IMG/VR virus record: IMGVR_UViG_3300035696_000020
Span: 1-64,000 of that record
Direction: 5' to 3' (one strand)
Source of the DNA: a virus
Length of the DNA: 64,000 nt
Shown here in pieces: positions 2,774 through 56,249 of this stretch (position 1 is the stretch's first letter; each line of letters begins with the position of its first letter). The translations under genes and the position numbers were made by a program. The notes under the pieces were generated by a model that was not told the DNA's origin, made no database searches, and was given only the letters and a program-made list of their open reading frames with translations.

Positions 2774-3270
2774 AATGAAAATTCACCGTATTTTTCAATT
2801 TCACGCTTTAATCTGACTTCAATGGCTTCTTCTTTTGTCGCAAAGCTTCCTAAATATTCATCTGCAATCCGCGCCATCCATGGTTTTGGTTCTCTTTTAG
2901 GATGGAATGTTACACCCGGAGTTCCGTGAGTATTGGTTGATCGGATTTTGCTGTTTCTTCGGTTTTGAGGAATGGTTGCCTCTCTAAGATTTATGAACCG
3001 ATTGTCATCTTTCTTGCCGTTGATATGGTCTACTTCATGTGGCGGCCATCTGCCATTTGATAATGCCATCACTAGACGATGAACCAAGATCATGCAGCCC
3101 TTGTATCTTATTGAAAGATATCCATCTGGGCGACGGCATCCTATTGGCCTGCCAATAATGACTTTTTTAGCTACCTTCTTTGACCAAGATAGAATGCCAG
3201 TCTCTTTATTGTAATTCAAAACAGATCGAAGTTCTTCAATTGGGATAGATTCTGACTTTGTTGACTTCAT
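2749..3270 (-). CDS. HNH homing endonuclease with AP2-like DNA-binding domain
   Basis: VHRL..EVDHINGKKDDNRFINLRE HNH motif, GV.F...W.A.I...YLGSF.T.EEA AP2; start moved to ATG 3270 behind GGGGG RBS. Confidence 0.9.
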   Translation of the reverse strand: MKSTKSESIPIEELRSVLNYNKETGILSWSKKVAKKVIIGRPIGCRRPDGYLSIRYKGCMILVHRLVMALSNGRWPPHEVDHINGKKDDNRFINLREATIPQNRRNSKIRSTNTHGTPGVTFHPKREPKPWMARIADEYLGSFATKEEAIEVRLKREIEKYGEFSFYRRPDGE

Positions 3271-3345
3271 AGAGGCCCCCTTACGTGCGCTCAGAAAAAG
3301 ATAGGGGACCACAACATTAAATTCAAGAGGGGATGAGCAAATTTT

Positions 3346-3720
3346 ATGACATATCAACCACCTGTCAACCCACCGACTACTGCCCAAGGTACTGGCTCCC
3401 TTGCAGACGTAGTCACAGCCCTTCAAGGCATCATACGCCACCTGTCCGCATGGGTGCAGGCATTCCAAGGCCGGGTGACTACGGGATCATTTACCATGCC
3501 AGCGGCGGCAACTGCGACGATTGCCCAGCCAGCAGTGCTTGCGACCTCGGAAATCTCATTGCAGGCAGTCAATGCCTCAGCGGCGACACTAACCGGAAGT
3601 AGCAAATCACTTTACATCCTATCGAAGTCACCTGGAGTGTCGTTTACGGTCAAGACTGGGGACGCAACCAATGCGGCGGGCACCGAATCCTTCACCTACC
3701 TCATCAACTCGCCAACGTAA
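3346..3720 (+). CDS. Putative virion protein
   Basis: GAGGGG RBS; Thr/Ala-rich beta-type sequence within structural module. Confidence 0.55.
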   Translation: MTYQPPVNPPTTAQGTGSLADVVTALQGIIRHLSAWVQAFQGRVTTGSFTMPAAATATIAQPAVLATSEISLQAVNASAATLTGSSKSLYILSKSPGVSFTVKTGDATNAAGTESFTYLINSPT

Positions 3721-3793
3721 CCACTACCTTCTCAACCGGCTTCTAATCGAGGCCCAACACGTCAATCTACTAGGGATAATGGGTAACACAATC

Positions 3794-4099
3794 ATGGCAA
3801 GAGACTACCTTAACCTACCTGCTACACTTGATGCACTAGAAGACGAAATGGACCGCGAGGCGTCCGCTGTCATTGAGGCTGCGCGTAAGGTACAGGAACG
3901 CGGCCTTGCGGAAATGAAACGCGCTCACGGTGCGATCAAGGTCAAAAACACCGCGATCGACCGTATGCAAGCCTTCGCCGACAACATGGAAGCCCGCAAC
4001 ACCTCGAATGGTGCACCCCCTTTGGCTGGTGGGGCCTCGTCTACGAACTCCACCGAAACGAAGCCCGGTGAGACTGCGCATCTTGGAGCCAAGTCATGA
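3794..4099 (+). CDS. Hypothetical coiled-coil protein
   Basis: ATG 3794 within ORF 3671..4099; helical heptad character. Confidence 0.5.
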   Translation: MARDYLNLPATLDALEDEMDREASAVIEAARKVQERGLAEMKRAHGAIKVKNTAIDRMQAFADNMEARNTSNGAPPLAGGASSTNSTETKPGETAHLGAKS

Positions 4100-4269: not shown

Positions 4270-4546
4270 TTCTGATTTTTCGATAGGCCGCCAACCACTC
4301 ACGTCGAAATTGTTTGCGATCTTTAATTCTTGATGAAATCTGACCCGCGTCATTAATTTCGATTGCAGCCATGATCTGATTGTAGATGCAGTTACGAACT
4401 GAAGTTTTGAAGGTTGACGATGTTGCCTCAATTGCTTCTGGATACATGACTTCAATATAGGCAACAACTTCCTTTCCAATATCCATTGCAATTTCTTTGA
4501 CTAGTTCACGGCTCCAAGATTCTGGTTCGGCGGGTACTGGCAGCAT
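4205..4546 (-). CDS. Hypothetical protein
   Basis: AGGAG RBS on minus strand; 113 aa helical ORF. Confidence 0.6.
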   Translation of the reverse strand: MLPVPAEPESWSRELVKEIAMDIGKEVVAYIEVMYPEAIEATSSTFKTSVRNCIYNQIMAAIEINDAGQISSRIKDRKQFRREWLAAYRKIRTTHSDQSAAHHATSRTDETQS

Positions 4547-4568
4547 CTTTTTCTCCTAGGAGGGTTAA

Positions 4569-6086
4569 ATTCCTTTAGAACATAGCAGTTCCAACGCAAG
4601 TTTCAAGCAAAATGTGTCCACTTTGATGAAAGAAGTGGGTAAAAGCAAGCACGTCAATAGCCCGCAGCAGGCCCTTGCGATCAGTTATGCCATACAACGT
4701 CGTGGCAAGGCAACCGGAGGCGTCGTCGGCTATGACGATGGTGGGGCGGTTCCTCAGTCACATATCAATGAAGCAGATGACGCACTTACATTGAATCCGC
4801 AAGAAAAGTCATTATATCAGAGGCACTTACGCAATCTATACGGCTCTGGCGGTGTTGATAATCCTGACGGCACTCGATCGACGCTTTTCCAATCAGTCCA
4901 AGAACACAATGGTAAATTCTATAACATACCGACTGTTTGGGATGGTAAGATTGAAACTCAGCCTTGGACAAACCCTAATACGGGCGAAACGATGCCCATG
5001 CCGAACGATACGGCCTTAAAGAACGTCGAAAAGGCTGGCTGGGATTCCTTTCCTTCATACGACACTCCCGAGGAAGCAGATGCCAGATACAATCAAATGC
5101 ATGATTTCATGCAAAAAGACACAATTGACTATCAGAATCATGCCAGAGGCGGCGTCGTGAGACGTTCTGGCGGCGTAGTTCCGCATTTTGATGATGGTGG
5201 GGCGGTCCAGTCAGTAATCCAAGCCCTATCCCAAGGCAGTCAGGGTGTCGCCGCTCCAGCCCCTCCTAGTTCAACTACCGTACCTTCCGCAACGTCATCT
5301 GGCCCGGTTACTCCCTCGCCTCCAAGCAGTGCCACCGTACAGCCTATGAGCGCGTCAGGGACACCGAATACCGGAGTTGCCGCCGCTCCTACCATGGGCG
5401 CACCGGGCACACCACAAACGCAGCCTATGGCCTCTGGAGTGGCACAAAACACGATGCCACAGGTCCCAGTACCGCAAGTCCAGGCAGCGAACAGCCCAAT
5501 GGCTAAAACGCTCATGAAGCGCGGTGGCCGACTGCATCGTGCCGTAGGTGGCTTCGATATGGCAAAAGGCCCCCACCTACAACCGTCACCACTCGCGAGA
5601 CGTATGGACAACCGCATGACTAGCGGAATGATGAGCGGGATGATGCACGGTCCGATCCTTTCCGCCGTGCCAGGACGTACGGATAGACACAATGTGAACG
5701 TTCCTTCAGCTTCCTATGTGATTCCCGCTGATGTCGTTTCCGCCCATGGCCAAGGCAATACTTTGGCGGGCATGAACGTATTGAGCAAACTTTTTAAGCT
5801 TGGACCACATGGTTCTTCCATGAAAATGGGGCGAGGACCAGGAGCACCGCAACCACCAAGGGCGATGGCCCATTCAGGCGGCGGGAAGGGCGGCGGATCG
5901 TCAATAGGTAGCCCTACACCTGTAGTAGTCGCAGGCGGTGAGATGATAATACCTCCTGAGAACTTGATGGCCGTTGTTCACCCGAACATCAATCATGCCC
6001 ACGAAATCATGGACAAGTGGGTGCTTAACGAGCGCGCCAAACACATAAAGACACTTAAGGGCTTGCCAGGACCAGCAAAGGACTGA
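4569..6086 (+). CDS. Internal virion protein with xxGGxV repeats (probable ATT start)
   Basis: AGGAGG 4558-4563 then in-frame ATT giving MPLEHSSSNASFKQNV..QALAISY; 8 GG motifs; C-terminal GRTD....VP..SYVIPADVVS domain. Confidence 0.7.
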   Translation: MPLEHSSSNASFKQNVSTLMKEVGKSKHVNSPQQALAISYAIQRRGKATGGVVGYDDGGAVPQSHINEADDALTLNPQEKSLYQRHLRNLYGSGGVDNPDGTRSTLFQSVQEHNGKFYNIPTVWDGKIETQPWTNPNTGETMPMPNDTALKNVEKAGWDSFPSYDTPEEADARYNQMHDFMQKDTIDYQNHARGGVVRRSGGVVPHFDDGGAVQSVIQALSQGSQGVAAPAPPSSTTVPSATSSGPVTPSPPSSATVQPMSASGTPNTGVAAAPTMGAPGTPQTQPMASGVAQNTMPQVPVPQVQAANSPMAKTLMKRGGRLHRAVGGFDMAKGPHLQPSPLARRMDNRMTSGMMSGMMHGPILSAVPGRTDRHNVNVPSASYVIPADVVSAHGQGNTLAGMNVLSKLFKLGPHGSSMKMGRGPGAPQPPRAMAHSGGGKGGGSSIGSPTPVVVAGGEMIIPPENLMAVVHPNINHAHEIMDKWVLNERAKHIKTLKGLPGPAKD

Positions 6087-21623: not shown

Positions 21624-22013
21624 GTGGGTCGCATCAAGCCAGAAATAGTTGAAGTTGCAAGAGAGATGCTACGAAAAGGAACCGGAATATCGGACATCTC
21701 TCGCGAACTAGACGTGTCTTCGGACGGCATTCGTCGGCATCTTAACCCTGAGTACCGGGAAAGCCGCAATCAATCCTCGATCGATTCGTACCATCGCAAC
21801 CCTAAGAAAAAGCGGAAGTGGAGGCCCAAACCGAAACATCCTCCGATTGGCATGCACACTGCTGGATTGAAGACAGAGGCAGTTGTAGTCCCGGATGAAG
21901 TGTTGGCAGAGCGCGACTATGCAATGCGGTATTATCAGGACGTGACATCGGAAGTTTTTGGTGACCCTTTACCTGGGCGCTCGGCCTTAAGTAAGAAACT
22001 CCGGGGGGAGTGA
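21624..22013 (+). CDS. HTH protein
   Basis: ISDISRELDVSSDGIRRHL; C-terminal FGDPLPGRSAL. Confidence 0.65.
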   Translation: MGRIKPEIVEVAREMLRKGTGISDISRELDVSSDGIRRHLNPEYRESRNQSSIDSYHRNPKKKRKWRPKPKHPPIGMHTAGLKTEAVVVPDEVLAERDYAMRYYQDVTSEVFGDPLPGRSALSKKLRGE

Positions 22014-23479
22014 TGAGGAAATGGACTATTGACGATGCGCGCCGGGAGTGTGGCGCGGTCGAAGAGTGGCTAAAGAAAGGATTTGATCCTTCTCCGTCCG
22101 GTCCCAAAAAGGGTGCCGTTCGTCTAGCCGCTGAACAACTAAAGGAACCGCGATCGTCATTTGAGGCTCGCGTTGGTGTACCAAACACGCCAGGAATGTA
22201 CCATAGGCAATTTGGTATTTCACCCGACTGGTCATTTTATAAAGGCAAAGACTTCGAAGAGTTGGTTCGGGAATCAATCGAAGCCTATCACGATGCTGAT
22301 GGAAATTTTGCTCAAGCAGCTAAAAATCTTGGGGTAAGTCCTAGCACAGTTCGAAATAGAATCAAAAACGCGGCAAGAACGGGGCTTATCTCTCGTAAAC
22401 CCGTCATGCCAGGATTTGAAATCCGCCAGACCTCGACACAACTTGATGGTAACGGGAACGTTGAACGGGAGTGGGTGAAGCAGGTTCCTGAGAGCGCGGA
22501 GCCTTTCGAGGTTCCTGCCGGCCACGTTATCAAGGGAATTTCCGCACTTACCGATGAGACTGGCAGAGTTCGTGCGCAGTGGATTAAGACACGGGATGAC
22601 CCTGAGAACGTCATTGCGCAGATCAATGCGGTGGTCGATGAGCTAAAGAAATCTATCCCGCGTGAGAAGCCAGTAAGCGCACCAAAATACACCGATGAAA
22701 AGTTGCTCAATCAGTTCACGGTGACCGATCTGCATTTTGGCATGCTGGCTTGGGCGGAAGAGACCGGAGACGCGGACTACGATTTGAAGATCGCGGAAAA
22801 GCTCCTGATCGACTGGTTCAACACCGCGATTGCAATGTCTCCGCGCGCCGAAGTTGGAGTTCTTGCGCAGCTTGGCGATTTGATGCACCACGACTCCATG
22901 GAAAGCGTCACGCCTACGAATCGCAATGTCTTGGACGCAGATAGTCGATTGCAGAAGATTATCCGTGTAGTGATCCGGGTAGTTCGCCAGATTATCTCGA
23001 TGCTCCTACAGCATCATTCCCACGTGCATGTCATCATGGCGACGGCAAACCATGATCCAGCGTCATCGGCTTGGCTGCGCGAACTACTTCATTCATTTTA
23101 CGAGAACGAACCGAGAATAACCGTCGATAACAGTCCGGACACATATTACGCCTACAAGTGGGGTGATACTGGGTTGTTCTATCACCACGGGCACAAGCGC
23201 AAAATCTCGGACGTAGATCGGACGTTCGCCGGCAAGTTCAAGGAAATCTATGGTTCATGCACTAAGAGCTACGGGCACCTCGGGCACCTCCACAACGATG
23301 AAACGGTGGAAAGCCCACTAATGAAGGTCGAGCGTCACCGGACACTTGCGCCTAGAGACGCTTATGCAAGTAGTCATGGCTGGCTTTCCGATAGCGATGC
23401 GAAAGTTATCACCTATCACAAAGAGTTTGGCGAGGTGTTCCGGTCTACACTCTCTCCGCAGATGCTGGCGAAGGCATGA
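22010..23479 (+). CDS. HTH + calcineurin-like metallophosphoesterase
   Basis: DLHFG, LGDLMH, NHD, HHGH, GHLH motifs; Fis-like HTH AAKNLGVSPSTV. Confidence 0.85.
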   Translation: MMRKWTIDDARRECGAVEEWLKKGFDPSPSGPKKGAVRLAAEQLKEPRSSFEARVGVPNTPGMYHRQFGISPDWSFYKGKDFEELVRESIEAYHDADGNFAQAAKNLGVSPSTVRNRIKNAARTGLISRKPVMPGFEIRQTSTQLDGNGNVEREWVKQVPESAEPFEVPAGHVIKGISALTDETGRVRAQWIKTRDDPENVIAQINAVVDELKKSIPREKPVSAPKYTDEKLLNQFTVTDLHFGMLAWAEETGDADYDLKIAEKLLIDWFNTAIAMSPRAEVGVLAQLGDLMHHDSMESVTPTNRNVLDADSRLQKIIRVVIRVVRQIISMLLQHHSHVHVIMATANHDPASSAWLRELLHSFYENEPRITVDNSPDTYYAYKWGDTGLFYHHGHKRKISDVDRTFAGKFKEIYGSCTKSYGHLGHLHNDETVESPLMKVERHRTLAPRDAYASSHGWLSDSDAKVITYHKEFGEVFRSTLSPQMLAKA

Positions 23480-48396: not shown

Positions 48397-49143
48397 ATGA
48401 ACAGTGAAGCAAACAGTACTGTGGCTGGTATTCGGGTGTGCACTAAATGTGGCATTCCGAAGCCAGCTACAGTAGAATTTTTCGTGCCGCATTGGCGTGG
48501 TGACCTATTGCGAGGTCATTGCAGGGAATGTGAACGAGCGTATCAGGCTGCTTATCGTAAGCGTGACCCAGAAAAGTGGCGTGTTTACCATAAGAAGCGT
48601 TATCGGAAATATATCGAAAAGCCAGAGCAAAAAGAAAAAAGACTAGAAGCAGCAAGGGCTTACCATCACAAGAACAAAGAAAAGGCAAATGCGGCAAGTC
48701 GAGAATACTATAGGAAAAGGAAGGCCGCTGGGACTCTTTGGCAGACGAACGGATGGCCAAAAAGAAAAAGAAAACAATATCTTGAGACAAGGCGACTTGC
48801 GTATCAGAGGCGTAAACAGTCTCCTAGTTTTAGATTGCGCGATGCGATTAGTAGCGCGATGCATATTTGTCTTAAGGGGAAAAAAGAAGGGCAGAAATGG
48901 GAATCATTGGTTGGCTATTCTCTTGCAGAGTTAATTGTCCATCTAGAGCGCCAATTTACCGGAAAGATGAATTGGCAGAACTACGGGAAGTGGCACGTAG
49001 ACCATATCGTCCCGCTTTGCTCTTTTTCGTTTGAAACGCCGTCTGATCCAGATTTCAAGGCTGCGTGGGCGCTAACGAACCTGCGCCCGCTTTGGCGGAT
49101 ACCGAATATAAAGAAAGGTGGCAAAAGACTCCATCTTCTATGA
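48397..49143 (+). CDS. HNH-type homing endonuclease
   Basis: CTKC..CREC; HLE.QF...MNW.NYG.WHVDHI.P, NL.PLW...N..KG. Confidence 0.88.
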   Translation: MNSEANSTVAGIRVCTKCGIPKPATVEFFVPHWRGDLLRGHCRECERAYQAAYRKRDPEKWRVYHKKRYRKYIEKPEQKEKRLEAARAYHHKNKEKANAASREYYRKRKAAGTLWQTNGWPKRKRKQYLETRRLAYQRRKQSPSFRLRDAISSAMHICLKGKKEGQKWESLVGYSLAELIVHLERQFTGKMNWQNYGKWHVDHIVPLCSFSFETPSDPDFKAAWALTNLRPLWRIPNIKKGGKRLHLL

Positions 49144-49250: not shown

Positions 49251-49328
49251 GCCGGCTTAGTTTCCAGATAGGCAAAACAGCGAGTTCGTACCTCGCAGTG
49301 GGTTGTTCAAGTCAACCAGTCGGCTCCA
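49251..49328 (+). tRNA. tRNA-Thr(CGT)
   Basis: GCGAG-TTCGTAC-CTCGC; CCA end. Confidence 0.8.
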
Positions 49329-49429
49329 AGATTTCTCACGGCCCCTGTTTGAGAGACTAAGGCCCCGTCTACGGACGGACGAGCCTAAAGGGGAAGGGAG
49401 GTAGATCGCCTCGCCGTTAGCGCAATTTC

Positions 49430-50290
49430 CTAGGTGCCTAAAAAAGGCGGTAGCGCCCGCCCCGTGAGAAAGCCAATTCCCTTGACTGGGAAGGATGACG
49501 CTGAACCTTTGGATAGAGGATCGTTAGACCTCGGGGCAGTACCGAGCTAGTCCACCACGAATACCATGGCAGTAAGCCGTTTTTATAGGACGGGGGATGC
49601 TCTTGGTTATCGCGCCATTGCGAAGTCGGAACAATGGAGTCGCAGTAACGTGGTATTCCTGATGGGCTAGAAATAGGATCGATAGCGATACGAAACCCAA
49701 AGCTGTGTCCGGTAGGCACCGATATTTGCCAGACGTTACGAGGATAGACAAGAATGGCTTTAACACCTTCACAAAGGGTAAGTTTGTGGCGTAAAAACAA
49801 CCTAGAGAAAGCTCGCGAAATAGATAGAAGGTACAGAGCGAAGTACAAAGAGAAATATGGGTTTCTCCCTTCTACTAAGTCCGTGCGAAAAGCGAGACAA
49901 CTTAATCCTGCCAAATTGCTTCTTAAGTCTGCCAAAAATAGGGCTAAGCAAAAAGGTATTCCGTTTAATATTACGGAAGAGGATATTCCTATACCTGAAT
50001 TTTGCCCAATCTTGAAGGTAAAGATCGAACTTGAACCGTTTCGACACAGACATGGGCCTTCAATAGATAGAAAGATTCCATCCTTAGGGTATGTAAAGGG
50101 GAATGTGGCAGTCATATCCATGCGAGCTAATCTCATGAAAAGAAATTACACTCTAGATTTTTTTGAAGCCGTTGTTGCCTATCTTCGTAGCGAATAACAT
50201 ACGCCAACGACAACGTTGACATGGATGCGGTTCGCCTCGCGGCGTAACCAATCCGGGGGACGGGGCACCTAGCAACAGAACGCCCCAACC
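49430..50290 (+). ncRNA. ssrA: Two-piece (circularly permuted) tmRNA, coding piece interrupted by an ORF
   Basis: Acceptor end CTCGGGGCAGTACCGAG-CTAGTCC-ACCA (to 49557); 5' end GGGCTAGAAATAGGATCGA (49664), G3.U70; tag ANDNVDMDAVRLAA* 50203-50247; GGCACCTAG pairs with CTAGGTGCC. 5' boundary uncertain. Confidence 0.9.
49754..50197 (+). CDS. HNH-like homing endonuclease inside tmRNA
   Basis: AK.RAK.KG.PF.I, CPIL, PSIDR..P..GYV.GNV.VIS..AN.MK. Confidence 0.85.
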   Translation: MALTPSQRVSLWRKNNLEKAREIDRRYRAKYKEKYGFLPSTKSVRKARQLNPAKLLLKSAKNRAKQKGIPFNITEEDIPIPEFCPILKVKIELEPFRHRHGPSIDRKIPSLGYVKGNVAVISMRANLMKRNYTLDFFEAVVAYLRSE

Positions 50291-50368
50291 TATCCGACGC
50301 GACACCTGCCGGGGCTGTGATGGCCGCAAGGAGTGGTGTGACAGCCTAGAGAGCGAGGTCTAAGATTG

Positions 50369-50443
50369 GCCCGGTTAGTTCAGTGATAGAACGTCTGTTT
50401 TGTACTCAGAATGTCGGGGGTTTGATTCCTCCACCGGGCTCCA
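50369..50443 (+). tRNA. tRNA-Thr(TGT)
   Basis: Cloverleaf, loop TTTGTAC, CCA. Confidence 0.85.
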
Positions 50444-50491
50444 CTGCCGTTGGTCTCCCAACCGATCTGACACGGAGACATCTGGCCCAGC

Positions 50492-50548
50492 ATTCTTGCG
50501 GCTGACGAAGCATCGGAAGATGCAGAAACCGTTCAGGTTCCGCGGAGT
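50492..50548 (+). ncRNA. Candidate type I hammerhead ribozyme
   Basis: GCGG-CTGACGA-a-GCATC/GATGC-a-GAAA-CC/GG-T-T-CCGC. Confidence 0.55.
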
Positions 50549-50589
50549 CCTCCCCGCTGGGGAATAAATGAGGACCTAGGATCGGTATT

Positions 50590-50663
50590 GCTCCCGTAGT
50601 ATAGTGGCATTACATCACTCTGGTACAGTGGTAACGGCTGTCCGATTCAGCCCAGGAGCACCA
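50590..50663 (+). tRNA. tRNA-Thr(GGT)
   Basis: Loop CTGGTAC, ACCA. Confidence 0.8.
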
Positions 50664-50669
50664 TTTCTA

Positions 50670-50752
50670 GGGCCAGTGGTGAAATTGGCGATACACGTCG
50701 GATTTAGATTCCGATGACGCAAGTCGTGGGGGTTCGAGTCCCTCCTGGCCTA
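50670..50752 (+). tRNA. tRNA-Leu(TAG)
   Basis: TCGGA-TTTAGAT-TCCGA, long variable arm, no encoded CCA. Confidence 0.85.
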
Positions 50753-50759
50753 GAAGTTA

Positions 50760-50844
50760 GTCCCGATGATGGAATTGGCAGACATGCGGGCTTCAAATAC
50801 CCGTGCCGAAAGGCGTGCAAGATCGTGGCTTGCTCGGGACACCA
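50760..50844 (+). tRNA. tRNA-Leu(CAA)
   Basis: Loop TTCAAAT, long variable arm, ACCA. Confidence 0.8.
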
Positions 50845-50914
50845 CACCACTTGTAATAGAACCACCGGAACATTACATGAACGGTGTAACGTTTAGAGTC
50901 GGGGGCTTCTGTGA

Positions 50915-51532
50915 ATGTCTACTAGACCAAGGGGGTTGGCTAAGGAAATTCGTGGTCTTCTATTAAGCGGAATGTCATCAGCAGATGTTAGAAGAAAACT
51001 TGGGGTCGGAAAGTCAACCGTTAGTTTCCACGCTCAGAAACTAGGACTTGGCGGGCGCCGTCATAAGAGAGATTGGAGCGATGTCCAGAAATTGCTTGAT
51101 GAGGGGCACACGGCCAGAAAAGTCATGGAACTTAGCGGGGTTAAATCGACTCCGTTTTATCTTGCTGTCAAAAGAGGTAAAATCACAGTCCCAACGAGGG
51201 AACACGCCCATTCTTGGCTAGGTCCAGAAGAACTCTCACAGAGATTGATGGGGAAGTCAGGTCGCGGTCCTCGTTACCGAATGAAGAAAAGGTTGCTAGA
51301 ATGTGGCGTGCTAGAGTACGAATGTAAAATTTGTGGTATTTCAGAGTGGAGGGGCGCACGCATTGATCTGAGGTTGGATCACATTGACGGTGACGGTACT
51401 AATTTTGCCATCGACAATCTTAGATTGTTATGCCCGAATTGTGATAGCCAGCAAGACACTTATTGTCACAAGCACCCAAAATCTAAAAGTAGTATGCGGG
51501 AGTGGTGGAATAGCAAGACACAGCCGCCTTAA
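50915..51532 (+). CDS. HTH + HNH homing endonuclease
   Basis: C..CGI.EW....L.LDHIDG...N....NLRLLCPNC.SQ. Confidence 0.88.
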   Translation: MSTRPRGLAKEIRGLLLSGMSSADVRRKLGVGKSTVSFHAQKLGLGGRRHKRDWSDVQKLLDEGHTARKVMELSGVKSTPFYLAVKRGKITVPTREHAHSWLGPEELSQRLMGKSGRGPRYRMKKRLLECGVLEYECKICGISEWRGARIDLRLDHIDGDGTNFAIDNLRLLCPNCDSQQDTYCHKHPKSKSSMREWWNSKTQPP

Positions 51533-51580
51533 GATCGGCCGACGAAAGTTATGCGGGTTGAAGTCCCGCTTCCCGCACCA
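51496..51580 (+). tRNA. tRNA-Leu(TAA)
   Basis: Loop CTTAAGA, long variable arm, ACCA. Confidence 0.8.
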
Positions 51581-51581
51581 T

Positions 51582-51655
51582 GGGAGATTAGCTTAATAGC
51601 AAAGCGCCTGCTTTACACGCAGGATTCGGCGGGGCAGTACCGTCATCTCCTACCA
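51582..51655 (+). tRNA. tRNA-Val(TAC)
   Basis: CCTGC-TTTACAC-GCAGG, ACCA. Confidence 0.88.
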
Positions 51656-51660
51656 TTTAC

Positions 51661-51733
51661 GCGGTGATAGGTTAGTGGCAAACCATCGCTTCGACATAGC
51701 GAGATCAAGGGTTCGATTCCCTTAACCGCACCA
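51661..51733 (+). tRNA. tRNA-Val(GAC)
   Basis: TCGCT-TCGACAT-AGCGA, ACCA. Confidence 0.85.
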
Positions 51734-51835
51734 CCTTAGCTTTGCTGGCAAAACCGCGTCACTAGGCGCGTACCTAGCTGTAGGGTCATACCAGCCCGCA
51801 CGGGCAAAGATACAGTCAAGGCTATCCATTTTCAC

Positions 51836-51909
51836 GGTCTCGTAGCTCAGTGGCAGAGCCGGCGCTTGATAGGCGTCTGACGCAAGTTCGATTCTTGACG
51901 GGACTACCA
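51836..51909 (+). tRNA. tRNA-Ile(GAT)
   Basis: GGCGC-TTGATAG-GCGTC, ACCA. Confidence 0.85.
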
Positions 51910-52028
51910 ATCACCGTGGCCGCTCGCATGACCGTTCCGAGAGGTAAAAGCAAAGGTCGTTAATCATTGCTGCCACAACTTGAAGGACACCAACGTATGA
52001 GTGACTATCTCAAACGCAGGGGCATTAC

Positions 52029-52111
52029 GGACCCCGAGCGTAGTCAGCCTGGATCGGCCGGGCAATGGGCCTTTAACCCATCCGCATGAAGTTCGAGCCT
52101 TCCGGGGTTCA
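52029..52111 (+). tRNA. Atypical tRNA-Lys(TTT)
   Basis: ATGGG-CCTTTAA-CCCAT; 8 bp acceptor, 4 bp T stem, enlarged D region. Confidence 0.55.
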
Positions 52112-52112
52112 C

Positions 52113-52189
52113 GGGTAACTAGCTTAAATTGGCAGAGCGACGGTCCCTTAAACCGTTAGGTCCCAGATCATGGCTGGGGTTACCCTCCA
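52113..52189 (+). tRNA. tRNA-Lys(CTT)
   Basis: ACGGT-CCCTTAA-ACCGT, CCA. Confidence 0.85.
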
Positions 52190-52224
52190 ACTATCGCGTA
52201 CCTCAAGTACGTCAAAGTTAGAAT

Positions 52225-52299
52225 GCTCCGTTACGCATCTGGTGAGGCGGCACGTCTGTCTAACGTGTGAGAGGGGGTCAGAACCCCTACGGAGCGCCA
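52225..52299 (+). tRNA. tRNA-Asp(GTC)
   Basis: CACGT-CTGTCTA-ACGTG, GCCA. Confidence 0.85.
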
Positions 52300-52390
52300 A
52301 TTATGAAAACCGAGTTCGAATATGTGGCATGGTGGCTGAATGCGCTGATGAAGCCTGCGCCACCTAAGCCTGGGGTGTTTGAGGTGCTAC

Positions 52391-52468
52391 GGTCGTCTAG
52401 CTTAATCGGTAAAAAGCCCGCGCCTCATAAGCGCAGTGATTCAGGTTCGAGCCCTGAGACGACTACCA
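52391..52468 (+). tRNA. tRNA-CAT (Met or Ile2)
   Basis: Loop CTCATAA, ACCA. Confidence 0.85.
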
Positions 52469-52485
52469 CTCTATGAGTTATAGCC

Positions 52486-52836
52486 ATGAAGATCATAGCT
52501 CACCTATTCGAACAGCCTGGGTCGCCATTGATCCGCCTATTTATCCACGATGCACCGCACAGACGGATGCACCGCAAAGTCTTGCAGCAATACCGAGAGT
52601 ACCTGCATAAGGCGATTGCCAAAACAGGGCTAAGGATGCCCTATCTAGGCCCGATTGAGTTATCGATCGTGTATGTCAATCCAACATCGCCGGATATAGG
52701 CAATTTATACAGTTGCACGGAGAGGTGTTTCGATGGCAAAGCCCTTGACCCACCTTATATCTTGGCAGATGATAGCCAGATACAGGTGCTTCACCATGTT
52801 TCGAAGATGTATACAGGTGGGGTGACAGAGAAATAA
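52486..52836 (+). CDS. RusA-like resolvase
   Basis: PD.GNL.....FD.......L.DDSQI. Confidence 0.7.
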   Translation: MKIIAHLFEQPGSPLIRLFIHDAPHRRMHRKVLQQYREYLHKAIAKTGLRMPYLGPIELSIVYVNPTSPDIGNLYSCTERCFDGKALDPPYILADDSQIQVLHHVSKMYTGGVTEK

Positions 52837-52913
52837 CGTAACATAGCTCAACTGAATAGAGCGCAGCCCTCCGAAGGCTGGAGATGCGGGTTTGAGTCCT
52901 GCTGTTACGACCA
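52837..52913 (+). tRNA. tRNA-Arg(CCG)
   Basis: CAGCC-CTCCGAA-GGCTG, ACCA. Confidence 0.88.
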
Positions 52914-52925
52914 ACTTAGGAGGGG

Positions 52926-53708
52926 ATGATGACGGCACGCGAGGTTGCACTAGACAATGAAATCCTGCGCGGGGTTGTCGGTTCGACGGCCCATGGTACG
53001 GCAATCGAAGGCCAAGACGATCGCGACGAAATGGGAGTGTTTATCGAGCCTCCCGAGTACGTGTGTGGTCTGACGCCCTGCGATCATTACATCTATCGGG
53101 ATGCAGCCGAAGGAGAGCGTAGCAAGCCAGGAGATTTAGACTTGACGCTCTACAGCCTGCGCAAGTTCTGCCGGCTAGCGACGCAGGGTAACCCAAGTGT
53201 GATAATTCTTCTATGGCTGCCACAGCATCTCATAGAGAAAACGTTAGGGCTTTCGCTAAAGTTGATGCGGTCTGCCTTCATCAGTAGAGAATCCGGCAAG
53301 CGGTTCCTAGGCTACCTCGTCGCCCAGAAGATGAAGTTGAAAGGCGAGCGCGCCCATACGGTCAATCGGCCTGAATTGGTCGAAAAGTACGGTTACGACA
53401 CAAAGTTTGCGATGCATGCTCTCCGATTGGGGTTCGAAGGCATCCAACTGTTGACGGAACGCCGTCTGTCATTACCAGTCGAAGAGCCTAACCTGACGAC
53501 GCTTCGAGCGGTGCGGAGTGGACAGGTCAAGTTTGCCGAGGCGTTGCAGTTGATCGAGGACGCGGAGATCAAACTTCGTGGCTTGCTCGATAACTTCAAC
53601 GTTGAAGCAGATCGGGATGCAATCAACAGGTTCATGGTCGAGGCTCATCAAGAGCATTGGCAAAAGAATAAGGAAGGGTGGCCGAGTGGCTTAAGGCAGC
53701 AATCTTGA
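52926..53708 (+). CDS. Pol-beta superfamily nucleotidyltransferase (YcgL/RlaP-like)
   Basis: GS.AHG......D.DE.GVF, KF..LA..GNP, GYDTKFAMH..RL. Confidence 0.88.
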   Translation: MMTAREVALDNEILRGVVGSTAHGTAIEGQDDRDEMGVFIEPPEYVCGLTPCDHYIYRDAAEGERSKPGDLDLTLYSLRKFCRLATQGNPSVIILLWLPQHLIEKTLGLSLKLMRSAFISRESGKRFLGYLVAQKMKLKGERAHTVNRPELVEKYGYDTKFAMHALRLGFEGIQLLTERRLSLPVEEPNLTTLRAVRSGQVKFAEALQLIEDAEIKLRGLLDNFNVEADRDAINRFMVEAHQEHWQKNKEGWPSGLRQQS

Positions 53709-53759
53709 AAATTGAAGGCCCGAAAGGGTCCGTGGGTTCAAATCCTACCCCTTCCGCCA
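53672..53759 (+). tRNA. tRNA-Ser(TGA)
   Basis: Loop CTTGAAA, long variable arm, GCCA. Confidence 0.9.
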
Positions 53760-53925
53760 AAATTTATGAGCTTGTGTCCGTGCTTGCCCTTTACGATCCT
53801 GGTTGCAAACAGGGGAGAGGTAGACGGAGTGGTTAGGAGCGATCGTCAGGCATAGTTCCTAGCTCTGTATCTGAGACAGACAAAGAGTGGAGTGATGGCC
53901 CTATACTCAGAACCATCAACTATTA

Positions 53926-54002
53926 TGCGCCGGTGGAGCAGAAGCTAGCTCGTTTGCCTCATAAGCAAAAGGTCGGAGGTGCAAGTCCTTCCCGCGCAAC
54001 CA
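53926..54002 (+). tRNA. tRNA-Met(CAT), fMet-like D arm
   Basis: TTTGC-CTCATAA-GCAAA; GTGGAGCAG..TAGCTC; ACCA. Confidence 0.8.
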
Positions 54003-54005
54003 ATT

Positions 54006-54076
54006 GGGTGAGCCTCTGGGAGGGGCCGGCTCTGTAAAAGCACGCCAGCGGTGTTCGATTCACCGATCACCCACCA
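54006..54076 (+). tRNA. tRNA-Tyr(GTA), short variable arm
   Basis: Loop CTGTAAA, CGGTG-TTCGATT-CACCG, ACCA. Confidence 0.65.
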
Positions 54077-54097
54077 TATGTAAAAAGGACAAAATCA

Positions 54098-54574
54098 TTG
54101 TTTGGAAGAGCCAAAAATACGAAACAAAAAGGTAATGTTGGAATTGGGGTTGCGATATCACATTATCTTTCTGAGATGTGTACCGTATCGATACCAATAA
54201 ATGATAGCCAAGATTACGATTTGGTTGTGGAAAAGGGTGGAATGCTTTTTAAGGTGCAAGTAAAGACAGCGGAAAGTAAAAGCAAAAGCGGTAAAATGTT
54301 TAGGGTTTGGCTATCTGTTCAGGGTGGTAACCGCAAGAAAAACTATATAAGTAAGTTGGGATCAGACTTGATATATGACATTCTATTCGTGGTTACTTCC
54401 GATGGTGAAAGATACGAGATTCCTCGTAGTGCCATCAGCCATATAAATCGCGTTATAGAAGTACCAGGAAAGTACATACAATACCGATGCGGGCGTAGCT
54501 TGACGGTCGAGCATATCAGCGCCACTGATAAGGCCCGGTTTCAATTACCGGCGCCCGCACCAAAAGAAGCCTGA
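54098..54574 (+). CDS. PD-(D/E)XK homing endonuclease (I-Ssp6803I-like)
   Basis: K.KG..G, VSIP..D...YDLVV.......VQVKT. Confidence 0.85.
   Translation: MFGRAKNTKQKGNVGIGVAISHYLSEMCTVSIPINDSQDYDLVVEKGGMLFKVQVKTAESKSKSGKMFRVWLSVQGGNRKKNYISKLGSDLIYDILFVVTSDGERYEIPRSAISHINRVIEVPGKYIQYRCGRSLTVEHISATDKARFQLPAPAPKEA
54489..54562 (+). tRNA. tRNA-Gly(GCC)
   Basis: GCGGGCG acceptor, TATCA-GCGCCAC-TGATA, ACCA. Confidence 0.75.
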
Positions 54575-54644
54575 GAAGATAACTTAGTAGAATCGCCAGA
54601 CTGAAAATCTGGAGGACGCCGGGCGGAACGGCGCTCAGGCACCA
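54569..54644 (+). tRNA. tRNA-Phe(GAA)
   Basis: CCAGA-CTGAAAA-TCTGG, ACCA. Confidence 0.85.
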
Positions 54645-54650
54645 AATTAC

Positions 54651-54725
54651 GGGGGTATAGCTCAATGGCAGAGCCCTCGCCTTGCAAGCGATAGACGGCG
54701 GTTCGACTTCCGCCTGCCTCCACCA
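54651..54725 (+). tRNA. tRNA-Ala(TGC)
   Basis: G3.U70, loop CTTGCAA, ACCA. Confidence 0.9.
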
Positions 54726-54730
54726 AGTTT

Positions 54731-54805
54731 TCCAGGGTCGACTAACGGAAAGTCCCGATGCTGTTAACATCGCCAATGGGTGTTCGAATCACTCCCCTGG
54801 AGCCA
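54731..54805 (+). tRNA. tRNA-Asn(GTT)
   Basis: CGATG-CTGTTAA-CATCG, GCCA. Confidence 0.88.
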
Positions 54806-54809
54806 ATAC

Positions 54810-54883
54810 GCGGCCATCTTCTAACGGTAGGAACCTCGGCTCTCATCCGAGAAACGGGAGATCGTCACTCCCTGGCCGCGCCA
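54810..54883 (+). tRNA. tRNA-Glu(CTC)
   Basis: CTCGG-CTCTCAT-CCGAG, GCCA. Confidence 0.85.
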
Positions 54884-54889
54884 AGTATC

Positions 54890-54966
54890 CCTCCCGTAGC
54901 TCAATGGACAGAGCACCACTCTACGAAAGTGGGTTTGTGCGTGTTCGACTCACGCCGGGAGGTCCA
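54890..54966 (+). tRNA. tRNA-Arg(ACG)
   Basis: CCACT-CTACGAA-AGTGG, CCA. Confidence 0.9.
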
Positions 54967-55053
54967 TTATTTGTGCAATATGTGGGGTTGCGCGGATTGC
55001 TGCGGTGCGGTATAATGCGGATTCGCAATCTCGCGAAGGAAAAAGGACTTGAA

Positions 55054-55167
55054 ATGAGACTGATTTTTGCTATTGTAATGAGCCTTGTTGTTGCGGTGCC
55101 GGCATTTGCGGGGACCAAGCATCAGGTCGATGTGGATGCGCGCGATCGGCACGACAGCCACTTCTAA
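55054..55167 (+). CDS. Small secreted peptide within tRNA array
   Basis: TTGCGC-N17-TATAAT promoter, AAGGA RBS, signal peptide ..PAFA-GTKHQVDVDARDRHDSHF. Confidence 0.55.
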   Translation: MRLIFAIVMSLVVAVPAFAGTKHQVDVDARDRHDSHF

Positions 55168-55175
55168 ACGAATAA

Positions 55176-55254
55176 CTGCCATTAGGGGAGTCTGGCCGTC
55201 CCCGCAACCCTTGGAAGGTTGAAATCCGAGGTTCAAATCCTCGATGGCAGACCA
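55176..55254 (+). tRNA. tRNA-Pro(TGG)
   Basis: CAACC-CTTGGAA-GGTTG, ACCA. Confidence 0.88.
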
Positions 55255-55258
55255 CTAT

Positions 55259-55334
55259 AGGGAATTAGCTCAGTTGGAAGAGCGCCGCTCTCTGAAAGCG
55301 GAGGTGCTTGGATCGAAGCCAAGATTCCCTGCCA
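55259..55334 (+). tRNA. tRNA-Gln(CTG)
   Basis: CCGCT-CTCTGAA-AGCGG, GCCA. Confidence 0.88.
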
Positions 55335-55339
55335 ACAAT

Positions 55340-55413
55340 GACGGCATGGCCGAGCGTCCAGGCTGGTGGCTGCAACCCACCCTAGGCAAGTTAAACTCTT
55401 GCTGCCGTCTCCA
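55340..55413 (+). tRNA. tRNA-Cys(GCA)
   Basis: GGTGG-CTGCAAC-CCACC, TCCA. Confidence 0.88.
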
Positions 55414-55417
55414 ATAT

Positions 55418-55492
55418 GCTCCGGTGGTCCAAAGGATGGTCGCCACTCTTCTAAAGTGGTTTTTTATGCTGGTTCGAGTCCAGCCCGGAGTG
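55418..55492 (+). tRNA. tRNA-Arg(TCT)
   Basis: CCACT-CTTCTAA-AGTGG, no encoded CCA. Confidence 0.85.
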
Positions 55493-55493
55493 C

Positions 55494-55567
55494 GGTCGCG
55501 TAGCCTAGCGGACGAGGCACCCTTCTCCTAAAAGGGATTTACGGATGTTCGACTCATCCCGCGACCT
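55494..55567 (+). tRNA. tRNA-Arg(CCT)
   Basis: CCCTT-CTCCTAA-AAGGG, no encoded CCA. Confidence 0.85.
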
Positions 55568-55576
55568 CTAAATTAC

Positions 55577-55661
55577 GGAAAGTTAAGCCGGCAGGGCCGG
55601 TCCTGCTTTGCTAAAGCAAGGGTGGGCGCAAGTCCATGGGAATCGTGTTCTCAGCTTTCCG
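55577..55661 (+). tRNA. tRNA-Ser(GCT)
   Basis: Loop TTGCTAA, long variable arm, G73. Confidence 0.8.
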
Positions 55662-55662
55662 C

Positions 55663-55736
55663 GCGGGCGTGGCGTAACAGCAACGTACTAGTCTTCCAAA
55701 CTAGGGTCCTCGGGGCAGCACCGAGCGTCCGCACCA
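55663..55736 (+). tRNA. tRNA-Gly(TCC)
   Basis: CTAGT-CTTCCAA-ACTAG, ACCA. Confidence 0.85.
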
Positions 55737-55858
55737 AATTTACCGTTCGGGTTCCCGCTCGGTAAGATCGGCCAAAAGATCGGCCATTGTTCCCGTTCGG
55801 GAATAGCGGTGTCAGAAAGTGATAGGACTAGTCTCCTAAAAGTGCATGAATTTTCAAT

Positions 55859-55935
55859 GGACCCTTCGTCTAGTCGGCCGAGGATACCTGATTTTCACTC
55901 AGGAGACGCGAGATCGTGCCTCGCAGGGTCTACCA
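55859..55935 (+). tRNA. tRNA-Glu(TTC)
   Basis: CCTGA-TTTTCAC-TCAGG, ACCA. Confidence 0.88.
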
Positions 55936-55937
55936 AT

Positions 55938-56010
55938 AGGCAAGTAGCTCAACTGGCAGAGCATTCCGCTTTGAACGGAAAGGTTGGGGTTTCGATCACC
56001 TCCTTGCCTG
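55938..56010 (+). tRNA. tRNA-Gln(TTG)
   Basis: TTCCG-CTTTGAA-CGGAA, no encoded CCA. Confidence 0.85.
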
Positions 56011-56011
56011 C

Positions 56012-56086
56012 GGCGGCAGTTCGGTAGGCGAACAGGTGTTGCTCATAACGACACATAGGCGAGTTCGACCCTCGCAGCCGCTACCA
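56012..56086 (+). tRNA. tRNA-CAT (Met or Ile2), atypical D arm
   Basis: TGTTG-CTCATAA-CGACA, GCGAG-TTCGACC-CTCGC, ACCA. Confidence 0.7.
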
Positions 56087-56091
56087 GTTAC

Positions 56092-56165
56092 GCCATTGTA
56101 GTTTAACGGTAAAACGCCTCGCTGTGGACGAGGAAACCGTGGTTCGACACCACGCCTTGGTGCCA
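56092..56165 (+). tRNA. tRNA-His(GTG)
   Basis: CCTCG-CTGTGGA-CGAGG, GCCA, no G-1. Confidence 0.85.
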
Positions 56166-56171
56166 AAATAT

Positions 56172-56249
56172 AGGGGTGTAGCTTAGCCTGTTCCAAAGCA
56201 CTCGTCTCCAAAACGAGGATCGTGGGTTAAAATCCTACCACCCTTGCCA
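56172..56249 (+). tRNA. tRNA-Trp(CCA)
   Basis: CTCGT-CTCCAAA-ACGAG, GCCA. Confidence 0.88.

Follow-up and report, generated by a model that had tools for sequence, protein, structure and literature searches.

A permuted phage tmRNA gene with an HNH-like nuclease cassette, closed by a predicted 26-bp helix, between pk1 and the resume codon

The locus described here lies on a phage contig of 103,891 bp with a GC content of 51.7%, whose first 64 kb form the window that was analysed. About 30 tRNA genes, with nuclease ORFs interspersed, form the array to which it belongs (49251-56249). The structural proteins of the phage point weakly to phages of Alphaproteobacteria, and a blastn search of INPHARED found no close phage relative, the tag region of two Rhodobacter phages being the sole match. 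Positions 49430 to 50290 hold an alpha-type permuted (two-piece) phage tmRNA gene, in which the acceptor piece precedes the coding piece in gene order. The coding piece is interrupted between pk1 and the tag frame by a cassette that consists almost entirely of a nuclease-like ORF (Table 1).

Table 1. Features of the interrupted tmRNA gene, in gene order
Feature	Position	Strand	Content	Basis
Acceptor piece	49430..49557	+	terminal-helix 5' strand 49430-38, two hairpins, P2 strands, T arm 49530-46	RF04321 and RF01849 alignments; pair probabilities 0.71-1.00
Acceptor 3' strand and CCA end	49547-53; 49555-57	+	CTAGTCC (49547-53), then discriminator A and CCA (49555-57)	
Natural intervening segment	49558..49663	+	106 nt	inverted repeat; insertion in Rfam alignments
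Coding-piece 5' module	49664..49733	+	acceptor 5' strand GGGCTAG, AAATAGGATCGA loop, P2 strand, pk1 49710-30, 3-nt linker AGA	Rfam alignments; alignment with Rhodobacter-phage tmRNAs
Inserted cassette	49734..50192	+	459 nt, 40.5% GC	alignments with uninterrupted relatives, which have no counterpart
Closing-helix 5' strand	49734..49761	+	holds GAGGA 49740-44 and AUG 49754-56	duplex energy, folds
Beta-beta-alpha-Me / HNH-like nuclease ORF, presumed homing endonuclease	49754..50197	+	147 aa	PHROG profiles, fold
Closing-helix 3' strand	50165..50192	+	within the last 10 codons of the nuclease ORF	duplex energy, pair probabilities
Linker, single-stranded	50193..50202	+	AAUAACAUAC, 10 nt	unpaired probability 0.90-0.99
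Tag frame	50203..50247	+	ANDNVDMDAVRLAA and stop TAA (50245-47)	ARAGORN on deletion constructs
3' module	50248..50290	+	G-rich hairpin, terminal-helix 3' strand 50264-72, conserved GCAACAGAA motif	RF01849 alignment

The gene had been recognised as a permuted phage tmRNA in a first-pass annotation made from the sequence alone, and this assignment was confirmed by Rfam, whose models match both halves. RF04321 (tmRNA_permuted) matches 49497-49794 with 59.8 bits (cut-off 47), and the 5' half of RF01849 (alpha_tmRNA) matches 49476-49728 with 58.4 bits (cut-off 50), covering model positions 40-216. The 3' half of alpha_tmRNA, recovered with a permissive threshold, matches 50154-50290 with 37.6 bits (E 5e-9) and is aligned up to model position 355. 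ARAGORN calls no tmRNA in the intact DNA. Deletion of the insert makes the gene recognisable: of 646 deletion constructs, 22 receive a permuted tmRNA call, which in 14 cases includes exactly the tag ANDNVDMDAVRLAA followed by its stop, and the positive constructs are those lacking the stretch from about 49723-49755 through 50196-50203. Only some deletion boundaries work, and the construct with the exact stem-loop deletion received no call, which is taken as a limit of the ARAGORN heuristics. A check of the sequence found every element listed in the first-pass annotation in its place, including the unusual position of the nuclease ORF (49754-50197) between pk1 (49710-49730) and the resume codon (50203).

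The elements of the tmRNA look intact on both sides of the insert, with scores above or near the Rfam thresholds. The tRNA-like domain is complete, with a 7-bp acceptor stem, a T arm, and an encoded CCA (pair probabilities 0.75-1.00). In the acceptor stem, GGGCTAG from 49664 pairs with CTAGTCC and includes the G3.U70 pair, formed by G49666 and U49551. The natural spacer between both pieces is closed by this stem and by an 8-bp extension, GAATACCA/TGGTATTC, at 49559-66 and 49651-58 (pair probabilities 0.97-1.00). The terminal helix joins GGCACCTAG (50264-72) to CTAGGTGCC (49430-38) through 9 bp, with a pair probability of 0.71-0.74. The natural spacer also contains, immediately downstream of the acceptor-piece CCA, a terminator-like hairpin followed by a T run (49566-49590), which leads one to ask if both tmRNA pieces are co-transcribed in all cases. 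Promoter-like sites occur at chance level (3 against 2.0 expected), and none of them informs the reading of the locus.

The nearest uninterrupted tmRNAs are those of the Rhodobacter phages RcSimone-Hastad and RcRudolph and of one IMG/VR contig (L001-L003), the latter being the one locus returned by an IMG/VR search with the tag pattern. These tmRNAs carry the tag ANDNVRMDAQALAA and give full-length Rfam matches of 91-109 bits, and the tag-region DNA of the Rhodobacter phages is 79% identical to that of the tag region studied here. The comparison with relatives lacking the insert, suggested in the first-pass annotation, delimits the cassette: it is absent from the Rhodobacter-phage tmRNAs, where pk1 and the resume codon are 13 nt apart. 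The insertion falls within the short, single-stranded stretch that links pk1 to the resume codon. At 40.5%, the GC content of the cassette is below that of the genome (51.7%) and of the tmRNA flanks (53-59%) and falls in the lowest 1.3% of genome windows, a foreign composition that fits a horizontally acquired mobile gene.

No trace of an intron was detected around this gene. An Rfam scan of 49350-50370 at E<=10, with permissive filters, returned only tmRNA matches and none to an intron family, whether group I, group II, or other, in agreement with the earlier observation of no visible group I intron core in the intervening stretch of about 460 nt. A group I intron was rejected on the lack of an RF00028 match at that threshold and on the 20 non-coding nt of the cassette, and a group II intron on the lack of an Rfam match and on the nature of the ORF, which encodes a nuclease-like protein of 147 aa. 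With only 20 of its 459 nt outside the ORF, the cassette has no room for a ribozyme core.

The product of the ORF was described from the sequence as HNH-like, a description that holds for its profiles and fold and is less secure for its active site. Its PHROG matches are phrog_3322 "endonuclease" (1.2e-31), phrog_1035 "endonuclease VII" (3e-13), and phrog_3118 "HNH endonuclease" (6e-7), while no Pfam family matched and a sequence search of the PDB returned no match. The AlphaFold model reaches a pLDDT of 92.4, and its top fold match is the HNH restriction enzyme PacI (Z 6.6, rmsd 4.2, 93 aligned residues), followed by Hpy99I, McrA, Gme HNH, and T4 endonuclease VII. The Z values are middling, yet the matches are consistently beta-beta-alpha-Me nucleases; Foldseek gave weak HNH matches only. 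In an alignment of 64 family members all invariant columns are kept in this protein, but none of them is a histidine. The end of strand 1 reads S-x-D-R, with D105 invariant and R106 nearly invariant at the expected position of the catalytic histidine, so that the usual D-H is here D-R. Nuclease activity is therefore only presumed, and phrog_3322 may be, judging from this alignment, a family of non-canonical or inactive beta-beta-alpha-Me proteins. The conserved core of the family can be written as PEFCP ... PS-x-DR ... GYVxGN ... S-x-x-AN-x-x-K.

Among 5.8 billion proteins searched, the closest homologue of the nuclease is 51% identical. Many unrelated phage contigs carry homologues of 30-54% identity as free-standing ORFs, which, together with the foreign GC content of the cassette, gives indirect support to a putative mobility of the gene. 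The 103,891-bp genome contains no paralogue of either the cassette or the nuclease. Two further nuclease ORFs of the tRNA array (48397-49143 and 50915-51532) have a GC content of 46-47%, below that of the genome, and are endonuclease VII-like in one case and HNH-like in the other according to their PHROG matches.

The two ends of the cassette are complementary and are predicted to form a closing helix of 26 bp, made of segments of 14, 3, and 9 bp separated by two 1x1 mismatches, a feature that had escaped the first-pass annotation. A duplex energy of -38.5 kcal/mol was calculated for it (z -7.5 relative to shuffled sequences), a strength equalled by a single pair among 3000 controls taken from the genome. 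In RNAfold predictions it is part of both the MFE and the centroid structure of the 627-nt coding piece and of the 871-nt precursor. In the latter all 26 pairs have probabilities of 0.92-1.00, and the helix coexists in the predicted fold with the acceptor stem, the T arm, the spacer extension, and the terminal helix. Among the 308 ORFs of the genome, the longest uninterrupted end-to-end helix is the 14-bp segment of the cassette, followed by one of 12 bp. The strongest irregular end-to-end duplex of the genome belongs to an exonuclease ORF (22010-23479; -47.7 kcal/mol) and is GC-rich, with many internal loops.

An end-to-end helix was found in none of 73 homologous IMG/VR nuclease genes, whose z values, calculated for the pairing against the local background, range from -1.0 to +2.7, compared with -4.8 for the cassette on the same measure. 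This excludes the helix as a trait of the nuclease family; likewise, a general feature of array nuclease genes is ruled out by the two other nuclease ORFs of the same tRNA array, which show no end-to-end pairing. The helix thus belongs to the copy inside the RNA gene. Two of the options considered in the first-pass annotation, the processing into a three-piece tmRNA and the tolerance of a giant loop, would both find in this modelled helix a candidate structural basis.

The predicted helix would also restore the geometry of the tmRNA. Along the sequence, the linker from pk1 to the resume codon measures 472 nt, and it is only with the 26-bp helix formed that it shortens to 13 free nt, 3 on the side of pk1 (AGA) and 10 on the side of the tag (AAUAACAUAC), as many as in the Rhodobacter-phage relatives. 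Both flanking segments are unpaired with a probability of at least 0.9. Similarly, the distance from the 5' G to the resume codon is 539 nt and drops to 80 nt after removal of 459 nt, in comparison with 61-130 nt in 42 other alpha-type phage tmRNAs.

The signals that set the reading frame lie downstream of the helix. Within the linker, position -4 is occupied by an A and there is an AUAA tetramer, of which the stop codon of the nuclease, UAA, forms part; the resume codon GCC at 50203 follows 5 nt past the stop. In Escherichia coli tmRNA the frame is determined mainly by the A at -4 (A86), the linker may be altered in sequence and length in its 5' part, and a hairpin suffices in place of pk1 (PMC2481249, PMC4236655). 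In the relatives a UAA or UAG is almost always located at -5 to -3, whereas here it stands 3 nt further upstream of GCC. If the restart were set by AUAA, it would fall at UAC 50200, in the same frame and with the same tag end.

These features suggest a mechanism in which a 459-bp foreign cassette with a free-standing HNH-like gene would have entered the linker between pk1 and the resume codon. The 26-bp helix would push the whole nuclease gene out as a side arm, leaving the normal linker of 13 nt, including A-4 and AUAA, and would at the same time hide the ribosome-binding site and the start codon of the nuclease, whose Shine-Dalgarno sequence GAGGA lies 9 nt before the ATG. With both elements in the helix, the nuclease could be translated only before transcription of the 3' strand or after the helix is cut. 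Either the double-strand-specific RNase III of the host would then remove the cassette without religation, or the extruded arm would stay in place. Removal would produce a three-piece tmRNA (acceptor, pk1, and tag pieces) joined by base pairing alone, in the remaining stub of the helix and in the terminal helix of 9 bp.

By analogy with the intervening sequences of rRNA, the insert is probably a mobile, stem-closed nuclease cassette that would be looped out, or cut out without religation, in a tmRNA that would remain usable. The more specific proposal, that RNase III cleaves at the 26-bp stem to give a working three-piece tmRNA and that the same cut frees or activates the nuclease mRNA, is put forward tentatively and with more doubt than confidence. 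Between the two fates of the arm there is a leaning towards excision, since the passage through the ribosome of a 459-nt arm placed 10 nt before the resume codon seems difficult. Such an arm may be unable to pass the ribosome, a point that also counts against the favoured interpretation. Other observations counting against the rRNA-like interpretation are that the cassette is known from a single example, that AUAA is shifted by 3 nt, that the nuclease family has no invariant histidine, and that relatives without the tmRNA exist.

The main rival of this interpretation is that the insertion inactivated the tmRNA, which would now be a recent pseudogene, and that the helix serves the cassette only, limiting the translation of a possibly toxic nuclease in a strongly transcribed tRNA/tmRNA operon, or stabilising its mRNA. 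The position of the helix over the Shine-Dalgarno sequence and AUG agrees with such a role. The tmRNA, furthermore, appears dispensable in this group of phages, as two distant relatives identified through a DUF7873 gene (L084, L085) have no permuted tmRNA; none was found either in three other contigs of about 100 kb. That the cassette is a single instance points in the same direction; no second copy was found in INPHARED or in the IMG/VR tag-pattern and metagenome scans, which returned no empty site either. So does its position: the roughly 100 or more other genuine alpha-type phage tmRNA genes sampled by two IMG/VR motif scans all lack an insertion in the stretch from pk1 to the resume codon, ORFs occupying only the harmless natural spacer. 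A dead tmRNA is, on the other hand, at odds with the intact elements and their Rfam scores, with a helix base placed exactly where the 13-nt linker is restored, and with the two array HNH genes and 73 homologues that manage without a helix. A dead tmRNA with a helix restraining nuclease translation is accordingly regarded as a possible, though rather unlikely, account of the locus.

Two other explanations leave the tmRNA functional by different routes. The cassette could be an unrecognised intron, spliced by itself or by enzymes, whose removal would religate the coding piece into an ordinary two-piece tmRNA. There is precedent in the group I introns of tmRNA genes, some of which contain homing endonuclease genes, and the study describing them notes that introns at sites other than the T loop could have escaped detection (PMC11915505). 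Nevertheless, the known tmRNA introns are all located in the T loop (PMC11915505), and the lack of any group I or II family match, even with permissive filters, and of space for a ribozyme core makes an intron very improbable here. Alternatively, as the first-pass annotation contemplated, translation could restart within or upstream of the nuclease ORF and add a nuclease-derived extension to rescued proteins. The position of the ORF is the one argument for this idea, which is contradicted by an ORF start buried in the helix, by the presence of a Shine-Dalgarno sequence and AUG of its own, and by A-4 and AUAA directly preceding the conserved ANDN tag frame; it is hardly credible.

The closest described analogue of the cassette, if it acts as favoured here, is the intervening sequence (IVS) in helix 45 of the Coxiella burnetii 23S rRNA, a 428-nt ORF-bearing element that is excised by RNase III without religation, the host rRNA working in pieces (PMC4990558). 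Like the IVSs of bacterial 23S rRNA, the cassette is an insertion into the gene of a structural RNA, probably acquired by horizontal transfer, with a long predicted closing stem, an ORF, and no ribozyme. Contrary to them, its host is a tmRNA, its site is a single-stranded linker rather than the tip of a helix, and the nuclease gene it carries is intact and has a Shine-Dalgarno sequence of its own; excision, demonstrated in Coxiella, is here inferred. The group I introns of the tmRNA T loop also loop a mobile endonuclease gene out of a functional RNA, but they are self-splicing, carry LAGLIDADG genes, and occur in standard-form tmRNA genes (PMC11915505), whereas the cassette has no ribozyme, sits between pk1 and the resume codon, encodes an HNH-like protein, and belongs to a permuted tmRNA.

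The natural segment of permuted tmRNA genes (RF04321, RF01849) offers a further parallel, being closed by a stem and removed without religation, after which the pieces stay base-paired. Its ends, however, are set by tRNA-processing enzymes (RNase P, CCA end), while this second insert has no tRNA-like ends. Finally, the cassette resembles the free-standing homing endonucleases of phages (HNH, GIY-YIG) in its small ORF, its own translation signals, and its foreign composition. Those genes are normally located between genes, in contrast to the cassette, which lies inside an RNA gene and has a helix that its homologues lack.

A 2025 census of 97,179 tmRNA sequences distinguished three gene forms, namely standard, with a T-loop group I intron, and permuted, and noted that interruptions at other sites could have been overlooked (PMC11915505). 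Full-text literature searches returned no paper on tmRNA genes interrupted in the manner described here. Such genes escape the standard finders, as ARAGORN fails outright and the Rfam match is split in two. If the cassette is looped out by its own stem, selfish genes could colonise structured RNA genes without a ribozyme, as the IVSs of rRNA do, and the frame-setting region of tmRNA might accommodate a large side arm or an interruption of the chain. The locus offers a natural setting in which to test to what extent trans-translation depends on the connection between pk1 and the resume codon.

Enlarged tmRNA genes are found elsewhere in the IMG/VR sample, and their extra sequence is always placed in the natural spacer, from the CCA to the 5' G. 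Several of them (L147, L106, L108/L123, and L216) hold small hydrophobic, membrane-like ORFs of 49-108 aa, which stretch the tmRNA genes to 540-630 nt, and ARAGORN misses them. In two related IMG/VR phages the natural spacer is occupied by a classical HNH gene (L114, about 1530-2060; L184, about 4320-4845), which encodes a protein of 153-156 aa with the motif HHIIPRHLGG and whose end overlaps the 5' end of the coding piece. Another IMG/VR contig (L011) carries a permuted tmRNA gene (3602-3898) that is preceded, at a distance of about 200 nt, by a 42%-identical homologue of the nuclease studied here (2968-3396). This tmRNA is of another type, with the tag AKPLAMAAAA, and a promoter-like TTGACA element lies between the two genes. 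Such a neighbourhood hints that the nuclease family may target tmRNA loci.
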